This document shows positions 13,323-30,524 of a stretch of DNA of 64,000 nucleotides, in pieces (within the stretch, counting starts at the first letter, position 1; each line of letters starts with the position of its first letter). The notes below the pieces were generated by a model. That model was not told where the DNA came from. It searched no databases and saw only the letters and a program-made list of their open reading frames with translations. The DNA is from Candidatus Aminicenantes bacterium (GTDB taxonomy: Bacteria; Acidobacteriota; Aminicenantia; Aminicenantales; Saccharicenantaceae). The translations under genes and the position numbers were made by a program. The stretch covers positions 4,170 through 68,169 of the forward strand of contig CAWEYF010000012.1 in the NCBI GenBank assembly GCA_963813235.1, in the 5' to 3' direction.

Positions 13323-13447
13323 ACCCGGCCTTTCATACTCGTGATGTCGTCGGGGAGTCCCGCGATGCCCGGGCAAAATTGATTTTCCGGCCTCAATCTT
13401 GTATGTTGAATCCATCCAACCTGAGGGGAGCATTGAAGATCGAACCC

Positions 13448-14791
13448 ATGACCGGCCCGCCGTTGAACATCCTCGTTGTCGATGACGAGGCCAACATCCG
13501 CCGAACCCTGTCCATTTGCCTCGAAACGGAGGGCCACAGGGTCATCAGCGTCGGCAGCCCCCGGGACGCCCTTTCCGAATCCGCCCGCCGGCCCTTCGAG
13601 CTTGCCTTCGTGGACCTGCGGCTCGGGACCGAGGACGGTCTCGATCTTATCCCAGCCCTTCTCGCCGCGGTCCCATGGCTTAAGATCATCGTCATCACCG
13701 CCTATGCGTCCATCGATACCGCCGTGGAGGCCATGCGGCGGGGGGCCAGCGATTACATCCCGAAGCCGTTCACGCCCGCCCAGATCCAGCTGGCGGTCCG
13801 GCGTGTCTTCGAGATGCGGACCCTCGAGCAGAGAGTCGCCGCCCTCCAAGAAGACCTGGGCCGGGGGCACCCCGAGATCGATCTCTCGAGCTCCAGCCTC
13901 CCGATGCGGAAGGCCGTGGACCTTGCTCGGCGCGTGGCCGTCTCCGAGGCCACGGTCCTCCTCCTCGGGGAGAGCGGCACGGGCAAGACCGTCCTGGCCA
14001 GGGCCATTCATGAGTGGAGCCCCCGGGCGTCAAAACCTCTCGGCATCATTTCCTGCCCTTCTTTTCCGGCCGAGCTCCTGGAGAGCGAGCTCTTCGGCCA
14101 CGAGAAGGGGGCGTTCACCGGGGCGGTCCGGGACAACCCCGGCCGCATAGCAGCCTGCGAGGGAGGGACGCTCTTCCTTGATGAAGTCGGCGACCTGCCC
14201 CCGGTCCTCCAACCAAAGCTCCTTCGGTTCCTCCAGGAGAAGGAGTACGAACGCGTCGGGGGCGGAGTGACGCGAAAAGCGGATGTTCGGCTCATCGCCG
14301 CCACGAACCTGGACCTCGAGAAGGCGGTCAGGGACGGGGCGTTCCGCGAGGACCTCTATTACCGGCTCAACGTCTTCCGGATCGAGATCCCTCCCTTGCG
14401 CAGCCGGCCCGACGACATCATGCCGCTCGCGGAAAGGCTCCTGGTCTTTCATGGACGGAACAACCACCGGTCCTTTTCCGGCTTTACGGAAGAGGCCGTC
14501 CGGGTGTTATCCTCCTATCCCTGGCCCGGCAACGTCCGGGAGCTGAGCAACGTCATCGAAAGGGCCGCTATCCTCTCCGGCACCGATCGCATCGGGATCG
14601 AAAACCTTCCCGGGACCATCTCCCCCGAAGATGCGTCTCCCCGCGTCGGGGACCCCATGACCCTTGAGAGAATCGAGGAACAACACATCCGCAGGGTCCT
14701 CGCCGGGTCCGCGTCCCTGCAGGAGGCCGCAAACATCCTCGGCATCGATCAGGCCACCCTCTGGCGGCGACGCAAGAAATACGGGATATAG
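13448..14791 (+). CDS. Sigma54-dependent response regulator (REC + AAA+ + Fis-type HTH; NtrC family)
   Basis: REC domain (ILVVDDE...DLRLG...ITAY...KPF). AAA+ domain with GESGTGKT, GHEKGAFTGA (GAFTGA loop) and FLDEVGDL. C-terminal HTH (AANILGIDQATLWRRRKKYGI). An alternative start lies at 13403. Confidence 0.9.
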   Translation: MTGPPLNILVVDDEANIRRTLSICLETEGHRVISVGSPRDALSESARRPFELAFVDLRLGTEDGLDLIPALLAAVPWLKIIVITAYASIDTAVEAMRRGASDYIPKPFTPAQIQLAVRRVFEMRTLEQRVAALQEDLGRGHPEIDLSSSSLPMRKAVDLARRVAVSEATVLLLGESGTGKTVLARAIHEWSPRASKPLGIISCPSFPAELLESELFGHEKGAFTGAVRDNPGRIAACEGGTLFLDEVGDLPPVLQPKLLRFLQEKEYERVGGGVTRKADVRLIAATNLDLEKAVRDGAFREDLYYRLNVFRIEIPPLRSRPDDIMPLAERLLVFHGRNNHRSFSGFTEEAVRVLSSYPWPGNVRELSNVIERAAILSGTDRIGIENLPGTISPEDASPRVGDPMTLERIEEQHIRRVLAGSASLQEAANILGIDQATLWRRRKKYGI

Positions 14792-14829
14792 AAGGGGAGG
14801 GCCCTTCCCCTCCGCACCCCTGCCGAATT

Positions 14830-15609
14830 CTACGCTAGAGCATCCTTATCGTCTTTCACGCCCAGCTTATTCTCCAGCAGGTTGATGCCCTGCAAAATAA
14901 TAAAGCTCTCGTCGTTCGTTTTGATATCGAGGACAATGTCAGAGTTCTTCAGGAGCGCCTTCATCCTGACCGAGAGATAGGCTATCGAGTTGGAGATGTA
15001 GATCGGGAAGTACCAAAAATAAAAGAACGCCAGGATCAAACAAAACACCCCAATACCGGCCATGAGGTTGATGATCCTGGCCGAATCGTGTTTCGCCATC
15101 TGGCTTTTCCGCTCGACCGCCTGCAGGTTGATGTCGTTGATGTTGTTGATGGCGTTTCTGAGAGTTCCTAGGGCCGGCTGGTATTCGTTAAAGTAAACGG
15201 CGCGACTGCCCTCGCCCTTGACGATCCGAAGGCAGAGGTTTGCGTACAGAACATAACCCTGGTTGACCGTATCCACATATTCCCTTTCATGGATCTCGGT
15301 GATGTTGCCGTTTTCGGACTTGAGGTTGTTTTCGAATTCGGTCCTCCCGGCTTCAAAGAGCTTCAAGTCGTAGTCGGAAGTCCCTTGGTCATCGGCCGGG
15401 TTGAAGACGATGCTGCTGATGGCCGTCCGCATATCTTCGAGGGCTGAGATCATGTTCTTGCAAAAGACGAGGGATTTGTAGTTATCCTTCAGAATGTTCT
15501 CGGCGTCACGCGAAAGCGTGCCGATATAAAGGGAATAGAAGACCATTAAAACAAAGATGATGAGGAACAAGAACCCCAAGCCTAACGTCAGTTTCTTTTT
15601 GAGTGTCAT
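14830..15609 (-). CDS. Stand-alone two-TM four-helix-bundle sensor + HAMP-like protein, no transmitter domain
   Basis: 259-aa ORF in a visibly AT-richer segment. The N-terminus MTLKKKLTLGLGFLFLIIFV...ILKDNYKSLVFCKNMISALEDM aligns with the kinase N-terminus LRQKLSLGFGGMLAILVII...ILRENYRSVIACQQMKEALERI. After a second TM segment (GIGVFCLILAFFYFWYF) there are only about 60 residues. Confidence 0.7.
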   Translation of the reverse strand: MTLKKKLTLGLGFLFLIIFVLMVFYSLYIGTLSRDAENILKDNYKSLVFCKNMISALEDMRTAISSIVFNPADDQGTSDYDLKLFEAGRTEFENNLKSENGNITEIHEREYVDTVNQGYVLYANLCLRIVKGEGSRAVYFNEYQPALGTLRNAINNINDINLQAVERKSQMAKHDSARIINLMAGIGVFCLILAFFYFWYFPIYISNSIAYLSVRMKALLKNSDIVLDIKTNDESFIILQGINLLENKLGVKDDKDALA

Positions 15610-15940
15610 GATGCCTCCAGAGAGGAACCCGTTTCTTTCAAGATAGTATCTTCATTGTAGTCCGATTCGCAGCAAATGGGAATCTTCCGGGGCCTGCTCA
15701 TGGACCTCCTCCGTTCCGTCAAGGCGCAATACATGGTTGTGGCGGAAAAGCCGCCGTCTTCTCAGTCGTGCTGGATAAGGTCGTGCTCTGGCCCGATGAT
15801 AGATACATTGCATGGCGAGAGCCAGGTGGAATGCTTTTCGGGCAACCTTCATCGTCGCAAGAAATACGGCATCTTAAAGCGGTTCGCCGAAGCCCGAGCG
15901 TACCCATATTGCCGAATTCAACGCCATTTACCGGACCGCC

Positions 15941-16016: not shown

Positions 16017-16033
16017 TGGCACGGCTCGTGCAT
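16017..16033 (+). promoter_or_regulatory. Sigma54 (-24/-12) promoter
   Basis: TGGCACG-GCTC-GTGCAT against the consensus TGGCACG-N4-TTGCW, with one mismatch. The GG and GC dinucleotides have correct spacing. The kinase start codon is at 16052 or 16058. Confidence 0.6.
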
Positions 16034-16051: not shown

Positions 16052-17901
16052 ATGAACATGCTCGGACTTCGACAGAAGTTATCCCTCGGTTTCGGCGGGA
16101 TGCTGGCCATCCTCGTCATCATCGGCGTCCAGAGCGTCCGTCACTTTTCGAGCCTGGGCGCGTCCATCGACGTTATCCTCCGGGAGAATTATCGAAGCGT
16201 CATCGCCTGCCAACAGATGAAAGAGGCGCTCGAGCGCATTGACAGCGGGCTCCTCTTCATTCTGTTGGGCGAGAGCGTGAAGGGCGAGGCCCTGGTCGCC
16301 GCGAACGAGACATTTTTCCGGGCGGCGCTCCAAGTCGAGCTGGATACGATCACCCTTCCCGGGGAAGGGGAGAAAGCCGCGCTTATCCGCGATTCCTTCG
16401 GCCGGTTCGAATCGGCCCTCGCCGGCGTCGTGGATCCCGCCCTGTCCGCCGCCGCCCGGAAAAGCGCCTATTTCGACCGCGTGCTTCCCCTGTTCGAGCG
16501 CATCAAGAACGGTGCGGACGAGATCCTGCAGATGAACCAGCAGAACATGAGCGACGCCAACGACCTGGCCCGGCGCAGCGCCGCCGCCGCGCGCAGACAG
16601 ATGTTCGCCCTCCTCTTGGCGGGCACGGTCCTCGCCTCCGCTTTCCTCCTTCTAACGGGGAGGTGGATCCTCCGTCCCATCCAGCGCCTTATCGGGTCCG
16701 CCGAGGAGATCCGGCGGGGGAACCTCGACCTGGTCGTCGCGACCGGCTCCCGGGACGAGATCGGCCGGCTTTCCGAAGCCTTCAATGCGATGGCGGCGAG
16801 CCTGCGCGAATTCCGGCGGACCGACGAGGCCCGACTCATTCGGATCCGACGGGCCACCCAGGAAGCGTTCGACAGCCTCCCTGACGCGGTCGCGGTCATC
16901 GATCCGGAGGGGAAGGTCGAGGTCGCCACGGAATCGGCCAGGACCGTCTTCGGGCTGAAGCCGGGGATTCGAGTCTCCGATTCGCCGTTCGAGGCGTTGG
17001 CCGACCTGTTTCGAACGGCGCTCAAGGAAGGCCGCATCGCCACTCCCGGAAACCGGGGAGAGATCCAGGTGTTCGTTGGCGGAGAGGAGAGGTACTTCCG
17101 TCCGAAAGCCGTGCCCATCCTCGACCGCGAACGCCTTGCCGACGGAGTGGTTCTGTTCCTCAGCGACGTCACCCAGCTCCGCCAGCAGGACGAGATCAAG
17201 AAGGGCGTGATCCGGATGGTGTCGCACCAGCTCAGGACGCCATTGACATCCATCCGCATGGCGATCCATCTTCTCCTCGAGGAAAAGGTCGGCCCCTTGA
17301 CCGAGAAGCAGGCGGAGCTCCTGGTGACCGCCAGGGAGGACAGCGATCGCCTGCACGGCATCCTGAGCGACCTCCTCGATATCAGCCGCATTGAATCCGG
17401 GAACGCCACGCTGGAATTCCGGACGGCTCCCCCCCGGACCGTGGTCTTGGACTCGATCGAGCCCTATCGGAGGGCAGCCCAGGACCAGGGCGTCGAGCTC
17501 GTCCCGGAGCTCAAGGACGACCTTCCCGACGTTTGGGTGGACTTGACCCGGATCGGTCACGTGTTCGGCAACTTGATCTCGAACGCCTTGAAGTACACGC
17601 CCGCCGGGGGCCGGATCGCGGTCGGGGCCGCCGCGGAGGAGGCCTTCGTCCGCTTTTCGGTCTCGGATACGGGAGCGGGGATCCCCGAGGAGTTCCTTTC
17701 GAGGGTCTTCGAACCGTTCTTTCGGGTTCCGGGCCACGGGAAAGAGATCGGAGCACGGGCTCGGATTGGCCATCGTCAAGGAGATCGTGGAGGCCCACGG
17801 CGGAACGGTCGGCGCCGAGAGCCGGTCCGGGGACCGGGTCCACATTCACGTTCACCCTCCGAAGGGCCGACCGGCGACTCGGCGGGGAGATCCGGGCATG
17901 A
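16052..17901 (+). pseudogene. Sensor histidine kinase (4HB sensor, HAMP, PAS, HisKA, HATPase_c), frame interrupted twice near the 3' end
   Basis: TM-flanked sensor, HAMP (RPIQRLIGSAEEIRRGNLD...DEIGRLSEAFNAM), PAS (FDSLPDAVAVIDPEG), H-box (MVSHQLRTPLTSI), N-box (NLISNALKYTP). The G-boxes are only readable after frame switches at about 17750 (HGLGLAIVKEIVEAHGG) and about 17830 (GTGSTFTFTLRRAD). Confidence 0.8.
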
Positions 17902-17981
17902 CCGACCTCCTCTACCTCGTCCTCGCCGGGCTCTTCTTTGCCGCCTGCGGGCTTTACGTCCGGGCATGTAAAAGGCTGTGA
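17898..17981 (+). CDS. 27-codon hydrophobic peptide upstream of kdpF (hypothetical)
   Basis: MTDLLYLVLAGLFFAACGLYVRACKRL. Its ATG overlaps the kinase stop (ATGA), and its stop is 2 nt before kdpF. There is no independent support. Confidence 0.3.
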   Translation: MTDLLYLVLAGLFFAACGLYVRACKRL

Positions 17982-17983
17982 CC

Positions 17984-18067
17984 ATGGCCGACATCCTTGG
18001 GCTCATCATCGGCCTCCTGCTCATCGGCTACCTCTTGATGAGCATCCTCCGGCCCGAAAAATTCTAA
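17984..18067 (+). CDS. kdpF: K+-transporting ATPase subunit F
   Basis: MADILGLIIGLLLIGYLLMSILRPEKF: 27 aa, a single TM segment, with the C-terminal LL.PEKF ending typical of KdpF. It lies immediately upstream of kdpA. Confidence 0.6.
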   Translation: MADILGLIIGLLLIGYLLMSILRPEKF

Positions 18068-18071
18068 TGGC

Positions 18072-19859
18072 GTGATCACGATGGACGTCTTCGGCTGGCT
18101 TCAACTGACGCTCTTTCTGGGGATTCTATTCCTCGTCACGAAACCGGTCGGCCTATATCTTGTTCGGGTCCTGGAGCCCGAAGGGAAAACCTGGCTGGAC
18201 CGGTCCCGTCAAGCCCGTCGAACGCCTGCTTTACCGCGTGCTCGGCATCGATCCGGGGAAGGAGCAGAATTGGAGGGAGTATGCCCGGTCCCTGATCGTC
18301 TTCAGCCTGGTCGGGCTGCTCTTCACCTACGCCGTCCTCCGGCTCCAGCATTTCCTCCCGTTGAATCCGCAGGGATTCGGGCCCGTTCGGCCCGACCTCG
18401 CCTTCAACACGGCGGCCAGCTTCACCACCAACACGAACTGGCAGAATTACGCGGGAGAAACGACGCTGTCCTATTTTTCGCAGATGGTCGGGCTCGTCTT
18501 CCACAATTTCGTCTCGGCGGCCGCCGGCATCGCCGTCGCCGCGGCCCTGGTCCGCGGCATCGCCCGGCATTCGGCCAGGACCATCGGGAACTTCTGGGTC
18601 GACCTCGTCCGGGTCAATCTCTACCTGCTGCTTCCGATCTGCGTCGTCTTCGCCCTCTTCCTGGTCTCCCAGGGCATCATCCAGAACTTCAAGCCCTACG
18701 TCAGGGCGGCGTCCCGTGCGAGAGCGCGCCTCGGCGGCCACCGGACAAGGCCGGGGATCCGCCAGACCATCGCCCAGGGCCCGGTGGCCTCCCAGGTCGC
18801 CATCAAGATGCTGGGGACGAACGGCGGCGGCTTCTTCAACGCCAATGCCGCCCATCCCTACGAGAACCCGACGCCGCTCTCGAACTTCATCCAGATGCTC
18901 TCGATCTTCCTCATCCCGAGCGGCCTCACCTATTACCTCGGGCGCACGGTCAGGAACCAGAAGCACGGCTGGGCGGTGTGGGGCGCCATGGCGATCCTCT
19001 TCCTGGCCGCCGTGCTCGTCTGCTGGCGGGCCGAAAGCGCCGGCAATCCGCGCCTGCACGCCCTCGGGGTGGACCCGGCCGGCAGGCAACATGGAAGGCA
19101 AGGAGGTCCGGTTCGGCATCTTCAATTCCAGCCTGTTCGCCACCGTCACGACCGACGCCTCCTGCGGGGCGGTCAACTCCATGCACGACTCCTTCACGCC
19201 CCTGGGCGGGCTGGTCCCGCTGTTCAACATCCAGCTCGGCGAGGTGGTCTTCGGCGGCGTCGGCGCCGGCCTCTACGGGATGCTCGTCTTCGTGGTCCTG
19301 GCCGTCTTCCTCACCGGCCTGATGGTCGGGCGGACGCCGGAATACCTGGGCAAGAAGATCGAAGCCTACGACGTGAAGGTCTCGCGTCCTGGCGGTCCTG
19401 ATCCTCGATCTTCGCGATCCTCGGGTTCTCGGCCTGGGCCGCCGCCAGCCGGTGGGGCTTGGCCGGCTTGAACAACGCCGGACCCCACGGCTTCAGCGAG
19501 ATCCTCTATGCCTTCTCGTCCGGCGCGGGCAACAACGGCAGCGCCTTCGCCGGCCTGAACGGCAACACGCCCTGGTACAACACCACCCTGGGGCTGGCCA
19601 TGCTCTTCGGCCGATTCTTCATGATCGTGCCCGGTCCTGGCCCTGGCCGGGAGCCTGGCCCAAGAAGAAGCTCGTCCCGTCCGGCGAAGCGAGCTTTCCC
19701 GGCAGCGGCCCGACGTTCACCGTCATCCTCATCGGGACGGTCCTCATCGTCGGCGCGCTGACCTTCCTGCCCGCCCTGGCCCTCGGCCCCATCGTCGAGC
19801 ATTTCCTGATGACCGGGACGGGTCTCTGTATTAAGGGAGGACGAACGATGCCAGCATGA
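18072..19859 (+). pseudogene. kdpA: K+-transporting ATPase subunit A, frame interrupted at least 5 times
   Basis: KdpA segments are readable in alternating frames: [124 protein letters not shown]. Frame switches are near 18205, 19085, 19383, 19408 and 19640. Confidence 0.85.
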
Positions 19860-21892: not shown

Positions 21893-22486
21893 ATGAAGCC
21901 CTGGCTCGCGGAATTCCGGAGGTCGCTGATGGCCGTGTCGGCTCTGGCCGTCCTTCTGTGCGGCCTTTACCCCGTGGTCGTCTGGATCCTGGCCCACGGC
22001 CTTTTCCCCGCCCGGGCCGACGGTTCTCTCATCGTACGGGACGGGGAGATCAGGGGATCGAGCCTGATCGCGCAGGGATTCACCGGCCCCGGGTATTTCC
22101 ATCCCCGGCCCTCGGCGGCGGGAAACGGCTAGGACGCCGCCCGGTCCGGCGGGAGCAATCTCGGGCCGTTATCGAAGCGATCTGTTCGAGATCGTCGCCG
22201 ACGCGTCGCCGATTATCGGCCGAGAACGGCCTCCCCGCCGGGACGCTCGTTCCCGCCGACGCCGTGACGGCTTCGGCCAGCGGCCTCGATCCGCATATTT
22301 CGTTGAAGAACGCCCTCCTCCAGGCCCGCCGCGTGGCCAAGGCGCGCGGTCTCGCGGAGACGGACGTCCGCACGCTCGTCGAAGAGCGGACCGAAGGCAC
22401 GGTCCCTGGGCATTCTCGGCGAGCCGCGCGTCAACGTGCTGCCGCTGAATCTGGCCCTGGACGGGGTCCCCGATGGCGGAAGATAG
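21893..22486 (+). pseudogene. kdpC: K+-transporting ATPase subunit C, in-frame TAG plus several frame switches
   Basis: N-terminal TM segment. RSGGSNLGP and [14 protein letters not shown] are KdpC motifs. There is an in-frame TAG at 22130-22132 where Tyr is expected ([15 protein letters not shown]). At least 4 further frame changes lie between 22170 and 22410. Confidence 0.8.
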
Positions 22487-24143
22487 GGCCGATACCTTCC
22501 TCCGGATGATCCGCCGCTCGCGGCACGGGCGGCTGAAGGTCTATCTCGGCTACAGCGCCGGCGTCGGCAAGACCTACCAGATGCTCCAGGAAGGGCACCG
22601 GCTGAAGAGCCGCGGGATCGACGTCGTCATCGGGTCTGCTCGAGACGCACGGCCGGGCCGATATCGCCGATCTCGCCCGCGGGCTGGAAGTGGTCCCCAG
22701 GCGCCGGCAGGAGTACCACGGCATCGCCGTGGAAGAGATGGACGTGGACGCCGTCCTCGCCCGCAAGCCGCAGGTCGCGCTCATCGACGAGCTGGCCCAT
22801 ACCAATGTCCCCGGCAGCCTGAACGCGAAGAGGTACGAGGACGTTCAGGACATCCTGGCGGCGGGGATCCACGTCATCACGACCATGAACGTCCAGCACC
22901 TGGAAAGCCTCTACAACATCGTCGAGGGCTCGGTCGGCGTCAAGGTCCGGGAGCGGCTCCCGGATTCCGTCCTGGCCGAAGCCGACGAGATCGTCGACGT
23001 CGACCTGGCGACCGAGGACCTCCGGAAGCGGCTCGAAGAAGGCAAGATCTACCCCGCCGAGCGCGTCGGAACGGCCCTGGCGAATTTCTTCACCTCCTCG
23101 AACCTGGAAAAGCTCCGCGAGCTGACCCTCCGCGAGCTCGCTGTCGCAGATCGATCTGAGGAGGCGGGAGACCCCGCGAGGACGAGAGCGCCTCCGCGGC
23201 GGAACAGGTCATGGTCTGCCTCAGCTCGCGCGGGCCCGACAGCGAAAGGCTTTTGCGCTACGGCTCGCGGCTGGCGGGAAAGCTCAACCGGAACTGGTAC
23301 GCCGTCTATGTCCAGACGCCGTCCGAGGAGGCCCGGGCCATCGACGCCCGGACCCAGCGGCTCCTCTCGGACACGCTGACCCTGGCCAAGCAGCTCGGCG
23401 CCATGGTGTTCACCTATAAGGGAGAGGATGTCGTCGACACCCTGCTCCGTTTCGCCGGGGAGTACCGCGTGGGGCATATCGTCGTCGGGCGATCGTGCCC
23501 GAAGCCGTTCTGGAAACGCCTGAGCGGGAACAGAACCGTCGTCGGCGATCTTCTGAAAAAGGCCCGCGGCGTCGTCGTGACCGTCCTCGATACCCGGGGA
23601 GAGGCGATCTCCGCGATGCGACCCCCGCAGGGGAGCCCGCGGGAAGAGAGGCGTCCCCCGCAGGCCGGCGGGCCTTCGTTGAGCCGATGGCTGGCCGCCC
23701 GCCGGATCGTCATCTGGGACGAACCCGTCCCGAAGGAGACCGTCCTCCGGACGCTGGCGTCGACCTTCGGAAAGGAGGACGGGATCGGCGACGGGGAAGC
23801 CCTTTACTCGGCTATCCTGAAGCGGGAGGGACAGGGCTCGACATTCTTCAACGAGGGCGTGGCGTTCCCCCATGTCCGCGTCCGGGGCCTGCCCGCCCCG
23901 GCCATCGCCCTGGGGCTGACGAGGGAGGGGGTCCCGGACGTCGTCACCGAGAAACAGATGGAGATCGTTTTTCTCATCCTGTCGCCCGAAGAGGAACCGA
24001 ACACGCAGGTGGAGCTCTTGGCTCTGGCCGGCCGGGCCGCGAGGAACAGGTCCCTGCTCCGAGACCTCGCGTCCTGCGCGACGGGAGAGGATGTCCTCGC
24101 CGCGATCCGGGATTCGGAAGCGGCCCGCGACCCCCGGCTTTGA
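22473..24143 (+). pseudogene. KdpD N-terminal sensor domain + Usp domain fused to a PTS EIIA(Ntr)-type domain; no TM or kinase domain; frame interrupted at least 3 times
   Basis: KdpD-N: LKVYLGYSAGVGKTYQML, LETHGR, IDELAHTN, TTMNVQHLESL. Usp-like: VMVCLSS...NWYAVYVQTP...HIVVG. C-terminus: AILKREGQGSTFFNEGVAFPHVRV...EIVFLILSPEEE...LLALAGRAARN, which aligns to E. coli PtsN (AILTREKMGSTGIGNGIAIPHGKL...DLLFALLVPADQ). Frame switches are near 22640, 23140 and 23170. The frame is intact from 23211 to the stop. Confidence 0.75.
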
Positions 24144-24300
24144 TACGTTCGCGGCGCCAAGCTCGATCTTCAAATCGGGGTAAAAAAGCGCCGCTCAGTA
24201 TCAACCCTGAGCATACCCGGGCTTCAGGCCGTGGGAGTCGAATGGGTTGATTTTTCTGAGTCCCTTATAATGAGGCGCGGCTTCCGGCGAGGAGTGAACG

Positions 24301-25502
24301 ATGTACGGGCGTTTCCAAGAATATCTTCAGGGCGAGCTGGAGCAGGATCAAGGCCGAGGGCCTCTACAAGCTCGAGCGGGTCCTGACGACCTCGCAGGGC
24401 GTCGAGATCCGGACCGAGGACGGGCCGAAGGTCCTCAACTTCTGCGCCAACAACTATTTAGGGCTCTGCAACGAGCCGCGGGTCATGGCCGCCGCCAATT
24501 ACACGTTCTTCCGGCTGGGCTACGGCATGGCATCGGTGCGCTTCATCTGCGGCACCTCCGAGGTCCATAAGGAGCTCGAGCGGAGGATGAGCGAGTTCCT
24601 GGGCACGGACGACACCCTGCTCTATTCCTCGGCCTTCGACGCCAACGGCGGCGTCTTCGAGCCTCTGCTCGGCGAGGACTCGGCCATCATCTCGGACGAG
24701 CTCAACCACGCCTCCATCATCGACGGCGTCCGCCTCTGCCGGGCCCGCCGCTACGTCTACAAGAACAACGACATGGCCGACCTCGAGGCGAAGCTCAAGG
24801 ACGCCGCGGACGCCCGGTTCCGGCTCATCGTCACCGACGGCGTCTTCTCGATGGACGGCATCATCGCCCAGGTGGACAAGATCTGCGAGCTGGCCCGCCG
24901 CTACGACGCCCTGGTCATGGTGGACGACTCGCACGCCACGGGCTTCATCGGAAAGACGGGGCGGGGGACCCATGAGCATTGCGGCGTCATGGGCGATGTG
25001 GACATCATCGTCACGACCTTCGGCAAGGCCCTCGGCGGGGCCTCCGGCGGCTGTATCTCCGGGCGGAAGGAGATCGTCGAGTTCCTGCGGCAGAGGTCGC
25101 GGCCGTACCTGTTCTCCAATTCGCTGACGCCCGGCATCGCCGGGGCCACGATCGAGGTCCTGAAGATCCTCGGGGAATCGACGGAGCTCAAGGACCGGCT
25201 CGAACGGAACACGGCCCGCTTCCGGAAGGGGATCGAGGCCGCCGGGTTCCGCATCGTCCCGGGCATCCATCCCATCGTCCCCATCCTCCTCGGCCACCTG
25301 CCGAACGACGCCAAGCTCTCCCAGGACTTCGCCGAACGCCCTCCTCGAGGAGGGCATCTACGTCATCGGCTTCTATTTCCCGGTCGTCCCGCGCGGCAAG
25401 TCCCGCATCCGGGTCCAGATCAGCGCCGCCCACACCCCCGAGCAGATCGACTTCGCCGTCGAGAAATTCGCCAAGGTCGGAAGAGCCCTCGGCGCGATCT
25501 GA
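24301..25502 (+). pseudogene. kbl: Glycine C-acetyltransferase-type alpha-oxoamine synthase (Kbl-like), frame interrupted twice
   Basis: Motifs: [72 protein letters not shown]. Frame switches are near 24345 and 25335. The corrected C-terminus is [30 protein letters not shown]. Confidence 0.8.
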
Positions 25503-25518
25503 GGCCGCCGCCCTGTCT

Positions 25519-25546
25519 TTGACAATTCCGGCCCGTCCCTTATAAT
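25519..25546 (+). promoter_or_regulatory. Sigma70 promoter (TTGACA-16-TATAAT) for acpS
   Basis: TTGACA at 25519-25524, 16-nt spacer, TATAAT at 25541-25546. The acpS ATG at 25554 is 7 nt after the -10 element, implying a leaderless or near-leaderless mRNA. Confidence 0.6.
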
Positions 25547-25553
25547 GATTCCC

Positions 25554-25958
25554 ATGATCTTTGGCATCGGCACCGACATCATCGAGGTCGGCCGGGTCGA
25601 ACAGAAGCTCGCCCGGACGGAGGGGCTCAAGAAGAAGCTCTTCACGGGAACCGAGACCGCTTACTGCGAATCCAAGCACCGCCCCGCCCTTCACTACGCC
25701 GCCCGGTTTGCCGCAAAAGAGGCGTTCCTCAAGGCCATGGGGACCGGCTGGAGCGGCGGGCACCGGTTCGACGAGATCGAGATCGTCAACGACCCCCTGG
25801 GAAAGCCCGAGCTCTTTGTCCACGGCAAGGTCCGCGAGTTCTGCGGGACCCGGGGCGTCACCCGCATGTCGGTTTCACTGTCCCACGTCAAGGAAATAGC
25901 GGCGGCCTTCGTCGTCCTTGAAACGGCGCCCGAAAAAATCAGCGGTTCCCGCGAATGA
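25554..25958 (+). CDS. acpS: Holo-[acyl-carrier-protein] synthase (4'-phosphopantetheinyl transferase)
   Basis: MIFGIGTDIIEV...AARFAAKEAFLKA...SLSH are AcpS motifs. The track start at 25545 lies inside the -10 hexamer, so the ATG at 25554 is preferred. Confidence 0.85.
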   Translation: MIFGIGTDIIEVGRVEQKLARTEGLKKKLFTGTETAYCESKHRPALHYAARFAAKEAFLKAMGTGWSGGHRFDEIEIVNDPLGKPELFVHGKVREFCGTRGVTRMSVSLSHVKEIAAAFVVLETAPEKISGSRE

Positions 25959-25980
25959 TCCGCCACGGGAGGAGAAGCGC

Positions 25981-27686
25981 ATGTCCAACATCGGCTCGTT
26001 AGACGACCGGGTGAAAGGCTCCACCTGGGCCGTCTCGGCCGAAGAGCTCGGCTACAAGGACGGCGACGTCATCAATATCGGCTGGTATTGCTCCGACAGG
26101 ATTTGCGCGACAGGGGAAGGCCGGCAAGCTCGCCCTCATTTGGGAAGGGCACTACCGGCGTCGAGAAACGCTTCACGTATAACGACGTCCGTCTGGCCTC
26201 GAACACCGTCGGCGCCTTCCTCCGCGGCCTGGGCATCAAGCCCGGAGAGCGGGTTTGCCTGTTCATGGACAAGGTTCCCGAGCTCTACCTCGGGTTCCTC
26301 GGCGTCCTGAAGATCGGGGCCATCGCCCAGCCGCTGTTCTCGGCCTTCGGCGACGAGTCCCTGTTCGTCCGCCTGTCGGACGCCGGGACCTCGGCGGTCA
26401 TCACCCAGAAGAAGCACGCCCCGAAGGTCCGGAAGATCCTCGACCGCCTGCCCCACATCCGGCACATCATCGTCGTGGACCACGACGGCATCGCGCCCCT
26501 CAAGGACCGCGAGGTTGCCTTCTCCCTCGAGAAGGCCGCGCCCGTCGAGCACCTCGAAATCCACCCGACCACGGCCGAGTCGCCTTCGGTCATCCACTAC
26601 ACTTCGGGGACGACGGGGATGCCCAAGGGCGTCAAGCACGTCCATTCCTCCCTCATCGCCCAGTACATCACGGCGAAGTGGGCCCTCGATCTCCGTGACG
26701 ACGACATCTACTGGTGCACGGCCGACCCGGGCTGGGTCACCGGGACTTCCTACGGCATCATCGCCCCCTTCGCCCTGGGCGTCACCCAGTGCGTCATGGA
26801 CGCCGGGTTCTCGGCCGAGGCCTGGTACCGGTTCGTCGAAAAGCGCCGGGTGACCATGTGGTATTCCGCCCCGACGGCCATCCGCTCCCTGATGAAGGCC
26901 GGCGACGAGCTCGTGAAGAAGTTCGACCTGTCCTCGCTCCGCCACCTGGCCAGCGTCGGCGAGCCCCTGAACTCCGAAGCCGTCGTCTGGTCCCAGAAGG
27001 TCTTCGGCAAGCCCTTCTACGACACCTACTGGCAGACCGAAACGGGCTGCATCGTGATCGGCAATTACCCCGGCATGGAGGTCAGGCCCGGCTCTATGGG
27101 GAAGCCGTTCCCCGGCATCACGGGCACCATCCTCGACCCGGTTCGGAACGAGCCCTATCCCGTTCACGGGAAGATCGGCCTCGTCGCCCTGAAGTTCGAC
27201 TGGCCGTCGCGGATGCGGACCTACTGGAACAACGAGGAGGCCTTCGCCAGGAAATTCCGTAACGGCTGGTATATCACGGGCGACCGGGCCCGGATCGACA
27301 AGGACGGCTACTACTGGTTCGCCGGGCGCGACGACGACATCATCAACACGGCCGGCCATCTGGTCAGCCCGTTCGAGGTCGAGTCGGCCCTGCTCGAGCA
27401 CCCGGCGGTCGCCGAGTCGGCCGTCGTCAGCAAGCCGGACCCCATCAACCTCGAGGTCGTCAAGGCCTTCGTGGCCCTGAAGCCGGGATTCGCGGCGGGC
27501 AAGGACCTGGACCTCGACATCATGAACTTCGTCCGGAAGAAGCTCTCGCCGCTGGCCATGCCCCAGGAGATCGAGTTCGTCGACAGCCTGCCCAAGACGC
27601 GGAGCGGGAAGATCATGCGCCGCATCCTCCACGCCCGCGAGTGGGGCGAGGAGATCGGCGACACCTCGACGCTCGAGAACGATTGA
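25981..27686 (+). pseudogene. AMP-forming acyl-CoA/acyl-carrier synthetase (acetyl-CoA synthetase-like), frame interrupted twice near the 5' end
   Basis: GGGAGGAG RBS before the ATG at 25981. Motifs: YTSGTTGMPKG, YWCTADPGWVTG, GYYWFAGRDDDIIN, PKTRSGKIMRR. The N-terminus reads ...DRICATGEG | AGKLALIWEG | TTGVEKRFTYND, with frame switches near 26118 and 26148. Confidence 0.8.
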
Positions 27687-27714
27687 AGTACAATAGACCT
27701 TCAGGAGAATCAAC

Positions 27715-27963
27715 ATGGACGATCTCAAAGACGTCGTATTGAAGTACGTGACCGAGGAATACCTCGAGACCGACAGCGATCCGATCACCTTCGAGACCCC
27801 GCTCATCTCGGGGGGCATCGTGGACTCCTTCTCGATGGTCTCGCTGAAGCGGTTCCTCGAGAACAGATACAACATCCAGATCCCCGACGACAAGGCGACG
27901 CCCGAGGCGTTCGATTCCGTCAACCGCATCGCCGATCTCGTCCGGGAATTCGTCAAGGCCTAG
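27715..27963 (+). CDS. Acyl/peptidyl carrier protein
   Basis: 82-aa ORF with the phosphopantetheine attachment context GGIVDSFSMVSL. It lies between the AMP-ligase and the oxoamine synthase. Confidence 0.8.
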   Translation: MDDLKDVVLKYVTEEYLETDSDPITFETPLISGGIVDSFSMVSLKRFLENRYNIQIPDDKATPEAFDSVNRIADLVREFVKA

Positions 27964-28010
27964 CCCTCCGGCGGCCGGGCGACGGAAGACCGTTCTCAGG
28001 AGGTTCCCTC

Positions 28011-29258
28011 ATGGCATACAGCGACAAGGTCCGCGGCATCTACGAAGCCCAGCTCCAGGGCATCCGGGACGCGGGCATCTTCAAGCAGGAAAGGTACATC
28101 CACTCGCCGCAGGCGGCCGACATCGAGGTGGAGTTCCCCTCCGGCGCGGCCTTGAAGAAGGTCATCAACATGTGCGCGAACAACTACCTCGGCCTCTCGA
28201 GCCATCCGGACGTCGTCCGGGCGGCCCATGAGGGGCTCGACGCGCGCGGCTACGGCATGTCTTCGGTCCGTTTCATCTGCGGCACCCAGGACATCCACCG
28301 CGAGCTCGAGCGCCGGGTGACGGAGTTCCTGGGGACAGAGGACACCCTCCTCTTCCCCTCGTGCATGGACGCCAACGCCGGTGTCTTCGAGGCCATCCTG
28401 ACCAAGGACGACGTCATGATCTCGGACCGGCTTGTCCACGCCTCGCTCGTCGACGGCATCCGCCTCTGCTCCGCCATGCACGACACCTACAAGCATTCGG
28501 ATATGGCCCACCTCGAGAGCAAGCTTCTGCTCTACGCCGACAAGCGGCTCAAGGTCGTCATCACCGACGGCGTCTTCTCGATGGACGGCGACGCGGCGAA
28601 GCTCGACGCAATGGTCGCCCTCTGCGATAAGCACGACGCCATGCTCCTCGTCGACGAATCCCACGCTTCGGGCTTCATCGGGAAGACCGGCCGCGGGACG
28701 CACGAGCGGTGCGGCGTCATGGGCAGGATCGACGTCATCACGACGACGTTCGGCAAGGCCCTCGGCGGGGCGTCCGGCGGCTGCGTCTCCGGCCGCCGCG
28801 AGCTCGTCGAGATGTGCCGCCAGAAGGCCCGGCCGTATCTTTTCTCGAACACCATCGCCCCGGTCGTCGTGGCCGGCGTCCTCAAGGTCATGGAGATCCT
28901 GTCCGGGAGCACGGAGAGACGCGACAAGCTCGAGGCGAACTCCGCCTACTGGCGGAAGGGCCTGGCCGAGGCCGGCTTCGTCCTCAGGGAAGGCGACACG
29001 CCCATCGTTCCCGTCATGCTGTTCAACGCCAAGCTCGCCCAGGACTTTTCCAAGGCCCTCTACGATGAAGGGGTTTACGCCATGGGCTTCTTCTTCCCGG
29101 TCGTCCCCCAGGGCCAGGCCCGCATCCGGACCCAGCTCTCGGCCGGCCACGAGACGCACCACCTCGACAAGGCCCTCGACGCGTTCGTCAAGGTCGGGAG
29201 GAAGTACGACATCCTGGGCAAGAGCAAGCAGGAGATCATCGAGAAATACGGGATGTAG
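28011..29258 (+). CDS. Glycine C-acetyltransferase-type alpha-oxoamine synthase (Kbl-like), intact
   Basis: 415-aa ORF. Motifs: [61 protein letters not shown]. It is paralogous to 24301-25502 and has an extra C-terminal tail (KYDILGKSKQEIIEKYGM). Confidence 0.85.
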   Translation: MAYSDKVRGIYEAQLQGIRDAGIFKQERYIHSPQAADIEVEFPSGAALKKVINMCANNYLGLSSHPDVVRAAHEGLDARGYGMSSVRFICGTQDIHRELERRVTEFLGTEDTLLFPSCMDANAGVFEAILTKDDVMISDRLVHASLVDGIRLCSAMHDTYKHSDMAHLESKLLLYADKRLKVVITDGVFSMDGDAAKLDAMVALCDKHDAMLLVDESHASGFIGKTGRGTHERCGVMGRIDVITTTFGKALGGASGGCVSGRRELVEMCRQKARPYLFSNTIAPVVVAGVLKVMEILSGSTERRDKLEANSAYWRKGLAEAGFVLREGDTPIVPVMLFNAKLAQDFSKALYDEGVYAMGFFFPVVPQGQARIRTQLSAGHETHHLDKALDAFVKVGRKYDILGKSKQEIIEKYGM

Positions 29259-29291
29259 GCGCCGAGCTCCCCGAGCCCTTCGAGGCGATCC

Positions 29292-30524
29292 CTAGAAGTT
29301 GTACTGGATCCCGATGACGGCGCCGGCCTGGGAGAGGCCGAGCTTATTCGACAGGTCGGCAATCTCGGGGCTGACGTAAGCCATCTTGAGGTCCAGGATG
29401 AACGAGATCTTAGTTGACAGCGCGTACTCGAACCCGGCCCGGACTCCCGCCAGGATGCTCGAGGCCGTCTTATCCGCAAAGGTGACCTCGCGGATGCTGG
29501 CGTCGGCCTCGGTGTAGGGAGAGCGGTCCTCGATGTCGATCACGTCGAGGAACCTGGACTTCCCGAAAACATAGCCGAGCTCCGGGCCCGCCAGGACCGT
29601 CAAGGCCCCGTTCGTGAAGACGCGGACGAGCCCGAACGCCGATACGGCGGTGAAGTAGCTGCGGAACGAGTCCGTTTGGGTGAGGGTCCGAGCGCCATCG
29701 GTCACGACCGGATTGGGGACCGTGAACACGTAGGTCCCGTCGCTCTTGAAGTTCCAGTACTCGAGGTCGAGCCCCAGCTTGATGTTCATGTCCTGGAGAT
29801 GCACATATTTTCCGAAGGTCAATACGGCCGGGGTGTTCAACTTCGGCTTAAGGGTCGATTCCGCCGTCCCTTCCTCCTGAGTCCCGTTGACGACGAAGGT
29901 TTGGGTGAAGACGGATCCGGAGCTCAGGAACGTCCCGACCCCTCCGCCGAGGAGGACGAAGAACCCTTTATCGGCTCCGCCGCCGGGCGGGACCGGCGCG
30001 GGGATCGCTGCGGGCTGAGCGCGGGGCGCGGCGACGGACGCGGGCGGGGCTTCCGTGGGCTTCCGCGGCGCGGCCTTCGCCGGGGCGATCGGCGCCCTTT
30101 CATCGTCCCTCAGGGCGCTCGTCCCTTCCTTCCAAAAGGTGACCTTCAGTCCGTCGGCCGCCCTGTCGATCCGGTACATGACGCCCGGGCCGTCGAGGTC
30201 GAAGACGATGCGGGCGACGTCGGCCTTGAACCGGCCCGTTCTGACCCGGAGAACACCTCCCGCGGCGACCTCGATCTGGGGGGAAGCCGAGATCGCATCG
30301 ACGGGGGACACGTCGATGACGAGCCGTTCGGGCTCCTTGAGCGTAAAGGCCTCGTTCCCGAATTCGCCGCGGATGCGTAGGGTGACCGCGACGGCTGGCC
30401 CTTCCTTCGTGAACGAGATCGATTCCAGGTCGGCCGCCTGGAGCGCGGAAGGCCGAAGGCCGGGGGCGGCCCAGAGCACGAATCCCGCCATGAGGGAAAC
30501 CGCGAGAAGCCTTTTTCGTGTCAT
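29292..30524 (-). CDS. Outer-membrane protein: AMIN domain + Pro/Ala linker + C-terminal beta-barrel
   Basis: Signal peptide, then an AMIN-like segment (ISFTKEGPAVAVTLRIRG...PERLVIDVSPV...RVRTGRF...VARIVFDL). This is followed by a PAPAKAAPRKPTEAPPASVAAP linker and alternating beta-strand sequence ending in GIQYNF (terminal Phe). Confidence 0.65.
   Translation of the reverse strand: MTRKRLLAVSLMAGFVLWAAPGLRPSALQAADLESISFTKEGPAVAVTLRIRGEFGNEAFTLKEPERLVIDVSPVDAISASPQIEVAAGGVLRVRTGRFKADVARIVFDLDGPGVMYRIDRAADGLKVTFWKEGTSALRDDERAPIAPAKAAPRKPTEAPPASVAAPRAQPAAIPAPVPPGGGADKGFFVLLGGGVGTFLSSGSVFTQTFVVNGTQEEGTAESTLKPKLNTPAVLTFGKYVHLQDMNIKLGLDLEYWNFKSDGTYVFTVPNPVVTDGARTLTQTDSFRSYFTAVSAFGLVRVFTNGALTVLAGPELGYVFGKSRFLDVIDIEDRSPYTEADASIREVTFADKTASSILAGVRAGFEYALSTKISFILDLKMAYVSPEIADLSNKLGLSQAGAVIGIQYNF

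Follow-up and report, generated by a model that had tools for sequence, protein, structure and literature searches.

A KdpD-N/Usp/EIIA fusion protein encoded in an Aminicenantes kdp operon: architecture, gene context and a possible role in pump control

The kdp cluster on contig CAWEYF010000012.1 of a Candidatus Aminicenantes bacterium (assembly GCA_963813235.1) ends in a gene whose product joins the N-terminal domain of KdpD (KdpD-N) and a Usp-like domain to an EIIA domain of the phosphotransferase system (PTS). All positions given here are those of the window, that is, the whole stretch of 64,000 nucleotides that was analyzed. A preliminary description, made from the letters of the DNA, had proposed such a covalent fusion, and the proposal is borne out by the Pfam matches of the protein, by orthologues that carry it in one open reading frame (ORF) and by the signature of purifying selection along the gene.

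The fusion gene and its product

The gene and its parts are located as follows.

22473..24143, + strand: KdpD-N/Usp/EIIA fusion gene, ~556 residues after frame correction
22524..23142, + strand: KdpD N-terminal domain (PF02702), putative atypical serine kinase (hmmscan, Foldseek)
22548..22574, + strand: Walker A-like motif GYSAGVGKT (G-x5-GKT), read from the sequence
22786..22791, + strand: Walker B Asp-Glu (IDELAH), equivalent to D109/E110 of E. coli KdpD and kept in 74 of 74 family members
23205..23588, + strand: Usp-like domain, approximate limits, residues ~244-371 (secondary structure, predicted local distance difference test (pLDDT) score of ~70, Foldseek)
23589..23675, + strand: variable linker rich in Pro, Arg and Glu, predicted to be disordered (pLDDT <50 at residues 375-398; length and sequence vary in the family alignment)
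23676..24134, + strand: PTS EIIA type-2 domain, PtsN-like (PF00359, matches to PtsN structures, pLDDT 80-94)
23871..23873, + strand: codon of the putative phospho-acceptor His (GVAFPHVRV), aligned with His73 of PtsN

According to the ORF listing and a three-frame translation of 22400-24200, the fusion is the final gene of the kdp cluster and starts at 22473, right behind kdpC. In the letters as deposited, the frame shifts from mod0 to mod1, to mod2 and back to mod0 across 22473-24143. For correction, the gene was compared with its intact orthologue in the syntenic contig L002 (GCA_964585685.1), which shares 91% nucleotide identity. Aligned to it, the gene contains exactly three single-base insertions, at ~22632, ~23142 and ~23172, and their removal gives a protein of ~556 residues with 93-94% identity to intact public metagenome proteins of 555-556 residues. 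The ORF that covers the Usp and EIIA parts (23211-24143) is free of interruption. The preliminary description had anticipated this state of affairs, with at least three frame corrections in the 5' part and an intact Usp-EIIA frame; the motifs that it quoted (GYSAGVGKTYQML, LETHGR, IDELAHTN, NVQHLESL, GVAFPHVRV and EIVFLILSP) were all located in the sequence.

The product is one polypeptide of the order KdpD-N, Usp, EIIA, without transmembrane (TM), GAF or histidine kinase (HK) parts. On the corrected protein, PF02702 and PF00359 are the sole Pfam matches of hmmscan. Neither Pfam nor a hydrophobicity scan found any TM, GAF, HisKA or HATPase_c domain in it, in keeping with the earlier statement that the TM helices and the histidine kinase of canonical KdpD are replaced. 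The maximal Kyte-Doolittle mean over 19 residues is 0.89, which corresponds to no hydrophobic segment, and the protein is therefore predicted to be soluble. The models for canonical KdpD (PRK10490/NF007793) match only up to model position 355 of 895, with 338.6 bits and thus below their cut-off of 1123. The model for kinase-less KdpD (NF038185, KdpD_non_kinase) reaches 349 bits, below its cut-off of 550, and covers residues 7-368 only.

The N-terminal part is a clear KdpD domain. PF02702 matches residues 18-223 at E 6.2e-89; the score of 297 bits far exceeds the cut-off of 26.1, and nearly the whole profile is covered (positions 2-207 of 210). The best Foldseek match is 2r8r, the N-terminal region of a KdpD, with 51% identity. 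Residue conservation was read from an alignment of 74 sequences, made up of the window protein and 73 distinct family members. The equivalents of G30, G36, K37, T38, D109, E110 and R190 are kept in all 74. At the position of W39, Tyr is found in 68 sequences, the window protein included, Trp in three, Phe in two and His in one; the replacement of Trp by Tyr can be regarded as a conservative aromatic change.

The middle domain is less easily recognized from its sequence. Among the three Pfam families that had been suggested for an hmmscan of the corrected translation, PF02702 and PF00359 were recovered, whereas PF00582 (Usp) was not matched at E <=0.1 on the window protein; precomputed matches to PF00582 exist for some homologues. 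The fold was addressed with an AlphaFold2 model built from 35 homologues, each of >=69% identity (overall pLDDT 58, predicted TM score 0.38). In this model the Usp region forms an alpha/beta domain, predicted at pLDDT ~70, which matches the Usp domain of KdpD in 7ji4 with a TM score of 0.84 as well as other Usp structures (Foldseek).

The C-terminal domain is an EIIA of type 2. PF00359 covers residues 420-547 at E 8.4e-15 and over profile positions 14-142 of 144; its 55.4 bits (56.9 on the intact ORF alone) are about twice the gathering cut-off of 27. The match lies in the interval of about 23,690-24,140 for which the preliminary description had named the lack of such a match as a refutation, so that the fusion withstands this check. 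The only solved structures matched by sequence at E <=0.01 are the PtsN proteins 1a6j, 2a0j, 3urr and 4gqx (E ~1e-8). The same four EIIA(Ntr) structures are the best Foldseek matches of the modeled domain, with TM scores of 0.80-0.85, and the sugar-type EIIAs 3oxp and 2oq3 rank behind them. The GVAFPH segment of the fusion aligns with the GIAIPH segment that holds His73 of E. coli PtsN. This His is kept in 73 of the 74 members and the equivalent of Arg57 in 70; both residues are invariant in a set of 14 EIIA sequences that reaches down to 22% identity. PtsN is usually a stand-alone protein of ~150-160 residues encoded in the rpoN operon. Unlike it, the EIIA described here is the C-terminal domain of a 556-residue protein encoded in a kdp operon.

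The architecture is shared by many database proteins. All of the 120 best homologues are 463-606 residues long and carry both PF02702 and PF00359, under labels such as "PTS sugar transporter subunit IIA" (NCBI) or "sensor histidine kinase KdpD" (JGI). An exhaustive search with the Usp-EIIA half as query, run against representatives at 50% identity, gave 78 clusters at E <=1e-30, at least 13 of which are full-length fused proteins (521-594 residues) down to 30% identity. Of 78 related loci that were retrieved with their 5' end complete, 75 have one ORF of 539-577 residues across all three domains, so that no boundary separates the Usp and EIIA parts in them. Relatives of the EIIA part were detected in at least 330 genomes of GTDB species; this count is a lower bound, obtained with one genome per GTDB species and two EIIA peptide patterns taken from a five-sequence alignment. 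By record title, these genomes are mostly Aminicenantes. Other hosts are metagenome-assembled genomes (MAGs) labeled Thermodesulfobacteriota or "delta proteobacterium", Krumholzibacteria, a Planctomycetota MAG and a Desulfomonile tiedjei MAG, and one carrier is an isolate, Syntrophorhabdus aromaticivorans UI (L060). Between the corrected gene and its L002 orthologue, the dN/dS ratio is 0.15 overall; the N domain has the lowest value (0.05), followed by Usp (0.16) and EIIA (0.20). These comparisons show a genuine fusion that is conserved and subject to purifying selection.

The kdp operon and its promoter

The genes that precede the fusion make up, together with it, a module of regulators and pump subunits.

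13433..14791, + strand: NtrC-type sigma-54-dependent response regulator (REC, Sigma54_activat, HTH_8; Pfam on the L002 orthologue)
16017..16032, + strand: sigma-54-type -24/-12 promoter TGGCACGGCTCGTGCA, 42 bp 5' of the histidine kinase start codon
16058..17900, + strand: membrane histidine kinase (TM, 4HB-like sensor, TM, HAMP, PAS, HisKA, HATPase), 3' end frameshifted
17984..18067, + strand: 27-residue hydrophobic ORF resembling kdpF, assigned by reading of the sequence
18081..19840 (end approximate), + strand: kdpA, several frameshifts; orthologue with PF03814
19856..21873, + strand: kdpB, P-type ATPase subunit with TGES motif, frameshifted; orthologue with PF00122 and PF00702
21893..22486 (end approximate), + strand: kdpC, frameshifted, overlapping the fusion start as in L002

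The gene order of L002 (UvrA, MntP, SDR, kdp module, aminotransferase, ACPS) is that of the window. Within the module, the order of sigma-54-dependent response regulator, membrane HK, kdpA, kdpB, kdpC and fusion is found in the large majority of 82 related loci compared by tblastn. Of 62 loci, 55 have a sigma-54-type element 5' of the HK start, mostly 40-52 bp upstream, when the pattern TGGCA[CT]-N5-TTGC[AT] is applied with at most two mismatches and with GG and GC required; the background across all loci is 0.025 per 280 bp. On account of this conserved -24/-12 element and the adjacent NtrC-type regulator, the operon of HK, kdpFABC and fusion is very probably sigma-54 dependent and driven by that regulator, and its control very probably does not follow the KdpD/KdpE route. 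The literature search returned nothing relevant on sigma-54/NtrC control of kdpFABC. Just 5' of the response regulator start at 13433 (a TTG codon preceded by GAGGGGAG), a sigma-70-like promoter of the form TTGATT-17 nt-TATGTT was noted at 13379-13407, which suggests that the response regulator is transcribed apart from the sigma-54 operon.

A minority of loci (L001, L017, L020, L024, L033, L034 and L082) show a different order, namely HK, fusion, a 248-residue protein, kdpABC and a canonical full-length KdpD downstream. The 248-residue protein is conserved in them and has no Pfam match. Given the canonical KdpD downstream, these genomes hold a fused short KdpD and a classical KdpD beside one pump operon. 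A BBP2 porin is also present in L001/L034 and L033. A P-II gene beside the L001 cluster was considered as a nitrogen link and dropped, as it occurs on one contig only (L001 and L034 being the same).

Further features of the region were noted along the way. A second hydrophobic ORF of 27 residues (17898-17981) stands in tandem before the kdpF-like one, between the HK gene and kdpA. The ~1.1 kb between the response regulator and HK genes (14800-15900) have a GC content of ~50% against ~65% and are absent from L002. Their minus strand carries a 259-residue ORF (14830-15609), a truncated paralogue of the sensor region in the HK (23% identity at E 4e-14). On either side of the segment stands one copy of an imperfect direct repeat of 30 nt, at 14768-14797 and at 15853-15882, in which the 3' end of the response regulator gene is duplicated. 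The segment may have arisen by recombination with a related locus, or the assembly may be chimeric here. Downstream of the fusion, 24300-29300 holds two class I/II aminotransferases resembling alpha-oxoamine synthases, an ACPS phosphopantetheinyl transferase, an AMP-dependent ligase and an 82-residue ACP-like ORF. This cluster is syntenic in L002 and may represent an amino-lipid or sphingolipid-type pathway unrelated to kdp.

How the fusion may act on the pump

In 2024, Silberberg et al. described the KdpD N-terminal domain as an atypical serine kinase that phosphorylates Ser162 of KdpB and thereby inhibits the pump (PMC11018627). The residues involved are G36, K37 and T38 of Walker A, D109 and E110 of Walker B, and W39 and R190, which coordinate the adenine; residues 1-230 of KdpD suffice for activity. 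According to the same study, short KdpD/Usp proteins occur frequently in the absence of KdpE; the one from Deinococcus geothermalis accepts E. coli KdpB as a substrate, and c-di-AMP stimulates it (PMC11018627). For the part of KdpD that the fusion retains, the preliminary description had spoken of K+ sensing, an assignment that these results replace with serine kinase activity on KdpB (PMC11018627).

We consider it somewhat better than even, at a rough probability of 0.55, that the fusion is a serine kinase which brakes the Kdp pump post-translationally, with an EIIA(Ntr)-like phospho-switch as its input. It would be a cytoplasmic regulator of three domains, co-transcribed with the pump from the sigma-54 promoter. 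Since the published catalytic residues are fully conserved apart from the aromatic exchange at W39, the N domain may turn the pump off as an atypical serine kinase, by transferring phosphate from ATP to the Ser of the KdpB TGES motif. Less firmly, the PtsN-like EIIA may take over the regulatory input of the canonical K+-sensing TM/GAF module; its His might be phosphorylated through a relay of the EI/HPr (NPr) type, and its phosphorylation state might gate either the kinase or the contact with the HK of the operon, as free PtsN modulates KdpD in Proteobacteria. Transcription, for its part, would depend on the adjacent HAMP-PAS kinase and the NtrC-type regulator acting at the -24/-12 promoter and not on KdpD/KdpE. 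The intramolecular target of the EIIA is likely the serine kinase/Usp module; alternatively, the EIIA docks on the HK of the operon.

Several observations weigh against this reading. The co-operonic KdpB does carry AITGESAPV, with the TGES motif whose Ser is phosphorylated in E. coli, but to our knowledge TGES is universal in P-type ATPases, so that its presence is not discriminating. The equivalent of His120 of PtsN is Gln in 72 of the 74 members of the clade; in several distant fused clades it is His. Two divergent fused representatives, P0176 and P0181, are without the EIIA His; both look decayed or neofunctionalized from their sequences. In P0176, the Walker B and NVQHLES motifs are degenerate as well. 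The relation to PtsN has its limits as well. The preliminary description had aligned the C-terminal domain with PtsN, including the context of the phosphorylatable His, and the aligned His73 and the closest structures agree with it, but the curated PtsN equivalog models are far from being satisfied (TIGR01419, 36.1 against a cut-off of 138.7; NF008145, 29.4 against 221). For this reason the domain is classed here as "PtsN-like" and not as PtsN. The fruA fructose-EIIA domain model scores slightly above the PtsN models, with 46.8 against a cut-off of 103.5.

Partners for a phosphorelay were sought in the window and in 82 related loci (1.4 Mb) by tblastn for HPr/NPr and by regular expressions for signature motifs of EI, HPr and RpoN. 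Neither the 64-kb window nor the 10 kb around each of the 82 loci yielded a gene for EI, HPr/NPr or HprK, which also counts against a PTS-driven input; the sole match was one chance HPr-like motif. The RpoN-box motif did not occur in the window. This null result says that such partners are not neighbors of the fusion locus, and nothing more. A putative mannose PTS has been reported in an Aminicenantes genome (PMC4897734), a mere hint that general PTS proteins occur in the lineage.

Two further points of the same kind concern structure. The structure prediction that had been suggested for the domain boundaries recovered the Usp and EIIA folds, but the N domain remained at pLDDT <50, and the model is usable for these two folds and not for the packing of the domains. 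The regions of KdpD that PtsN contacts are the HisKA/transmitter part in E. coli and the GAF domain in S. fredii (PMC9239096), and both are absent from the fusion protein. The preliminary description had read the fusion as a possible Rosetta stone. This reading is partly supported: the fusion speaks, indirectly, for a functional link between EIIA and Kdp, but with HisKA and GAF missing it cannot reproduce the physical interface between PtsN and KdpD.

Some of these observations also speak for a rather unlikely alternative, in which the EIIA is an unphosphorylated docking module on the DHp/transmitter region of the operon HK. The fusion would then mainly tune sigma-54 transcription, and KdpD-N/Usp would sense ATP without kinase activity. 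E. coli PtsN acts on HisKA in its unphosphorylated form, the fusion gene is always linked to the operon HK, and PTS genes are missing nearby in the window and the 82 loci. In anion exchangers, which are present among the Foldseek matches, the EIIA fold has a regulatory function without being phosphorylated, and the Gln at the His120 position points in the same direction. However, the near-invariance of the His and its partner Arg across phyla is hard to explain without phosphoryl chemistry, and the serine kinase residues other than W39 are all invariant.

It is also conceivable, at low probability, that the protein simply belongs with the short KdpD/Usp serine kinases known from Deinococcus and is operated via Usp, for example by c-di-AMP, and that the EIIA is accessory or vestigial. 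Stimulation of the D. geothermalis protein by c-di-AMP and the similarity of the Usp region to 7ji4, a c-di-AMP-bound KdpD Usp structure (TM score 0.84), speak for it, as does a published list in which a probable family member appears without a third domain. This is I4C4T7 of Desulfomonile tiedjei, given in the 2024 supplementary table as "KdpD domain, Usp domain" (PMC11018627). Its stored sequence ends at 399 residues and is 79-82% identical to fused family members, which makes it probably a fused member whose third domain is missing from the record. In S. aureus KdpD, the c-di-AMP motif reads SXS-X20-FTAXY (PMC4686210). It is absent from all 73 distinct members, which weakens the case for c-di-AMP, and the score for NF038185 stays below its cut-off. 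Moreover, the EIIA is retained in 75 of 78 loci with its active-site residues intact, and its dN/dS of 0.20 indicates purifying selection.

The frameshifts raise the question of whether the gene and the whole kdp operon form a decaying pseudogene cluster in the window genome. Besides the three in the fusion, many more affect the 3' end of the HK gene, kdpA, kdpB and kdpC. Comparison of the whole syntenic stretch with L002 revealed ~40 frame-breaking indels within 17.7-26.2 kb. Nearly all of them are +1 insertions, and they reach unrelated downstream genes (aminotransferase, ACPS, acyl-CoA ligase). Outside this interval they end abruptly, with zero indels in the aligned blocks of 10.8-12.4 and 13.4-14.8 kb and three in the SDR gene. 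Orthologues of 93-94% identity are intact, and the dN/dS from substitutions is 0.15. Real decay is accordingly improbable: the insertion-only, regionally confined pattern and the strong purifying selection make local assembly or read errors the most likely origin of the three frameshifts in the fusion gene.

The last alternative, an artifact in which sequencing error in this error-prone assembly merged an adjacent short kdpD and a ptsN-like gene, is refuted by the unbroken ORF through Usp and EIIA, by the single ORF in 75 of 78 independent genomes including the isolate L060 and by the presence of both Pfam domains in all 120 best database proteins.

A more complete circuit can be tentatively outlined, which we regard as a possible but on the whole doubtful extension. 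In it, a His switch of the PTS(Ntr) type would be hard-wired to a serine kinase that shuts a P-type ATPase, so that the metabolic state (phosphoenolpyruvate/pyruvate or nitrogen) would gate K+ pumping directly, at the post-translational level. The same EIIA would cross-talk with the sigma-54/NtrC-type two-component system that replaces KdpD/KdpE. Together these parts would form a complete, previously undescribed Kdp circuit, widespread in Aminicenantes and in anaerobes of the Desulfobacterota type.

Significance and relation to known systems

No description of a KdpD-EIIA fusion emerged from the literature searches, nor is one mentioned in the 2026 review of PTS(Ntr) (PMC13104625) or in the 2024 KdpD paper and its supplements (PMC11018627). 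The preliminary description had known of no account of the architecture. The searches agree with this, though hundreds of database proteins already carry it under generic names. The KdpD-N/Usp/EIIA fusion thus appears to be undescribed. It can be seen as a short KdpD, putatively a serine kinase, to which a PtsN-like domain has been added as a presumed input, within a predicted sigma-54-dependent kdp operon.

The regulation of short KdpD proteins without TM/GAF K+ sensing has been called a "conundrum", which has been answered for the c-di-AMP-responsive members only (PMC11018627). The fusion points to a new coupling of metabolic signaling with potassium uptake. It also offers independent genomic support, from distant phyla, for a tie between EIIA(Ntr)-type signaling and Kdp, and suggests that this link can act post-translationally and not solely via transcription. 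Across Proteobacteria, K+ homeostasis is the most consistent target of the nitrogen-related PTS. The conserved sigma-54 promoter and the NtrC-type regulator indicate an undescribed route of kdp transcription that does not pass through KdpE. For biochemical work, the fusion supplies a single soluble protein, with versions in S. aromaticivorans UI and probably in Desulfomonile tiedjei, and the assay of KdpB phosphorylation is known to work across species (PMC11018627).

Among known systems, the short kinase-less KdpD proteins are close relatives, such as Q1J2K3 of Deinococcus geothermalis and cyanobacterial KdpD-N (PMC11018627). Like the fusion with its Usp-like region, they combine soluble KdpD-N and Usp domains and have no TM, GAF or DHp-CA parts. 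The fusion is likewise encoded with kdpABC, keeps the serine kinase residues apart from the aromatic exchange at W39 and is expected to act on KdpB. In contrast to them, it has an additional C-terminal PTS EIIA type-2 domain of ~150 residues, is without SXS-X20-FTAXY and falls below the NF038185 cut-off. It is also part of an operon of the sigma-54/NtrC type, whereas the short KdpD operon has no dedicated transcription factor.

The second point of comparison is the interaction of free PtsN with KdpD. In E. coli, P. putida and rhizobia, PtsN is a binding partner and modulator of KdpD, and the rhizobial kdp cluster encodes ptsN2 (PMC13104625); the interaction in E. coli, which the preliminary description had cited as established, agrees with this and with the work on contact regions (PMC9239096). 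In both cases an EIIA(Ntr)-like domain with the conserved His and Arg pair is tied to Kdp. Here, however, the EIIA is covalently fused and not free, its partner is KdpD-N/Usp and not HisKA or GAF, and it differs from PtsN in failing the equivalog models and in the Gln at the His120 position. The hosts differ as well, being Aminicenantes and anaerobes of the Desulfobacterota type and not Proteobacteria.

With the canonical KdpD/KdpE-kdpFABC system, the fusion shares the KdpD-N domain, the Usp-like region and the target operon. It differs in the lack of the TM, GAF, HisKA and HATPase parts, and some relatives keep a canonical KdpD beside the cluster. The linked regulator is of the NtrC type (sigma-54), unlike the OmpR-type KdpE, and the input of the linked kinase is 4HB-HAMP-PAS.

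Covalent use of an EIIA domain for regulation has a precedent in the PRD transcription activators MtlR, LicR and ManR, to which EIIA(Mtl)-like domains are fused. In these proteins a PTS_EIIA_2 domain is a covalent, His-phosphorylated regulatory module of a protein that is not a transporter, as would be the case in the fusion. Their output is a DNA- or RNA-binding regulator, whereas that of the fusion, which has no PRD or EIIB, would be a serine kinase/Usp module acting on an ion pump.

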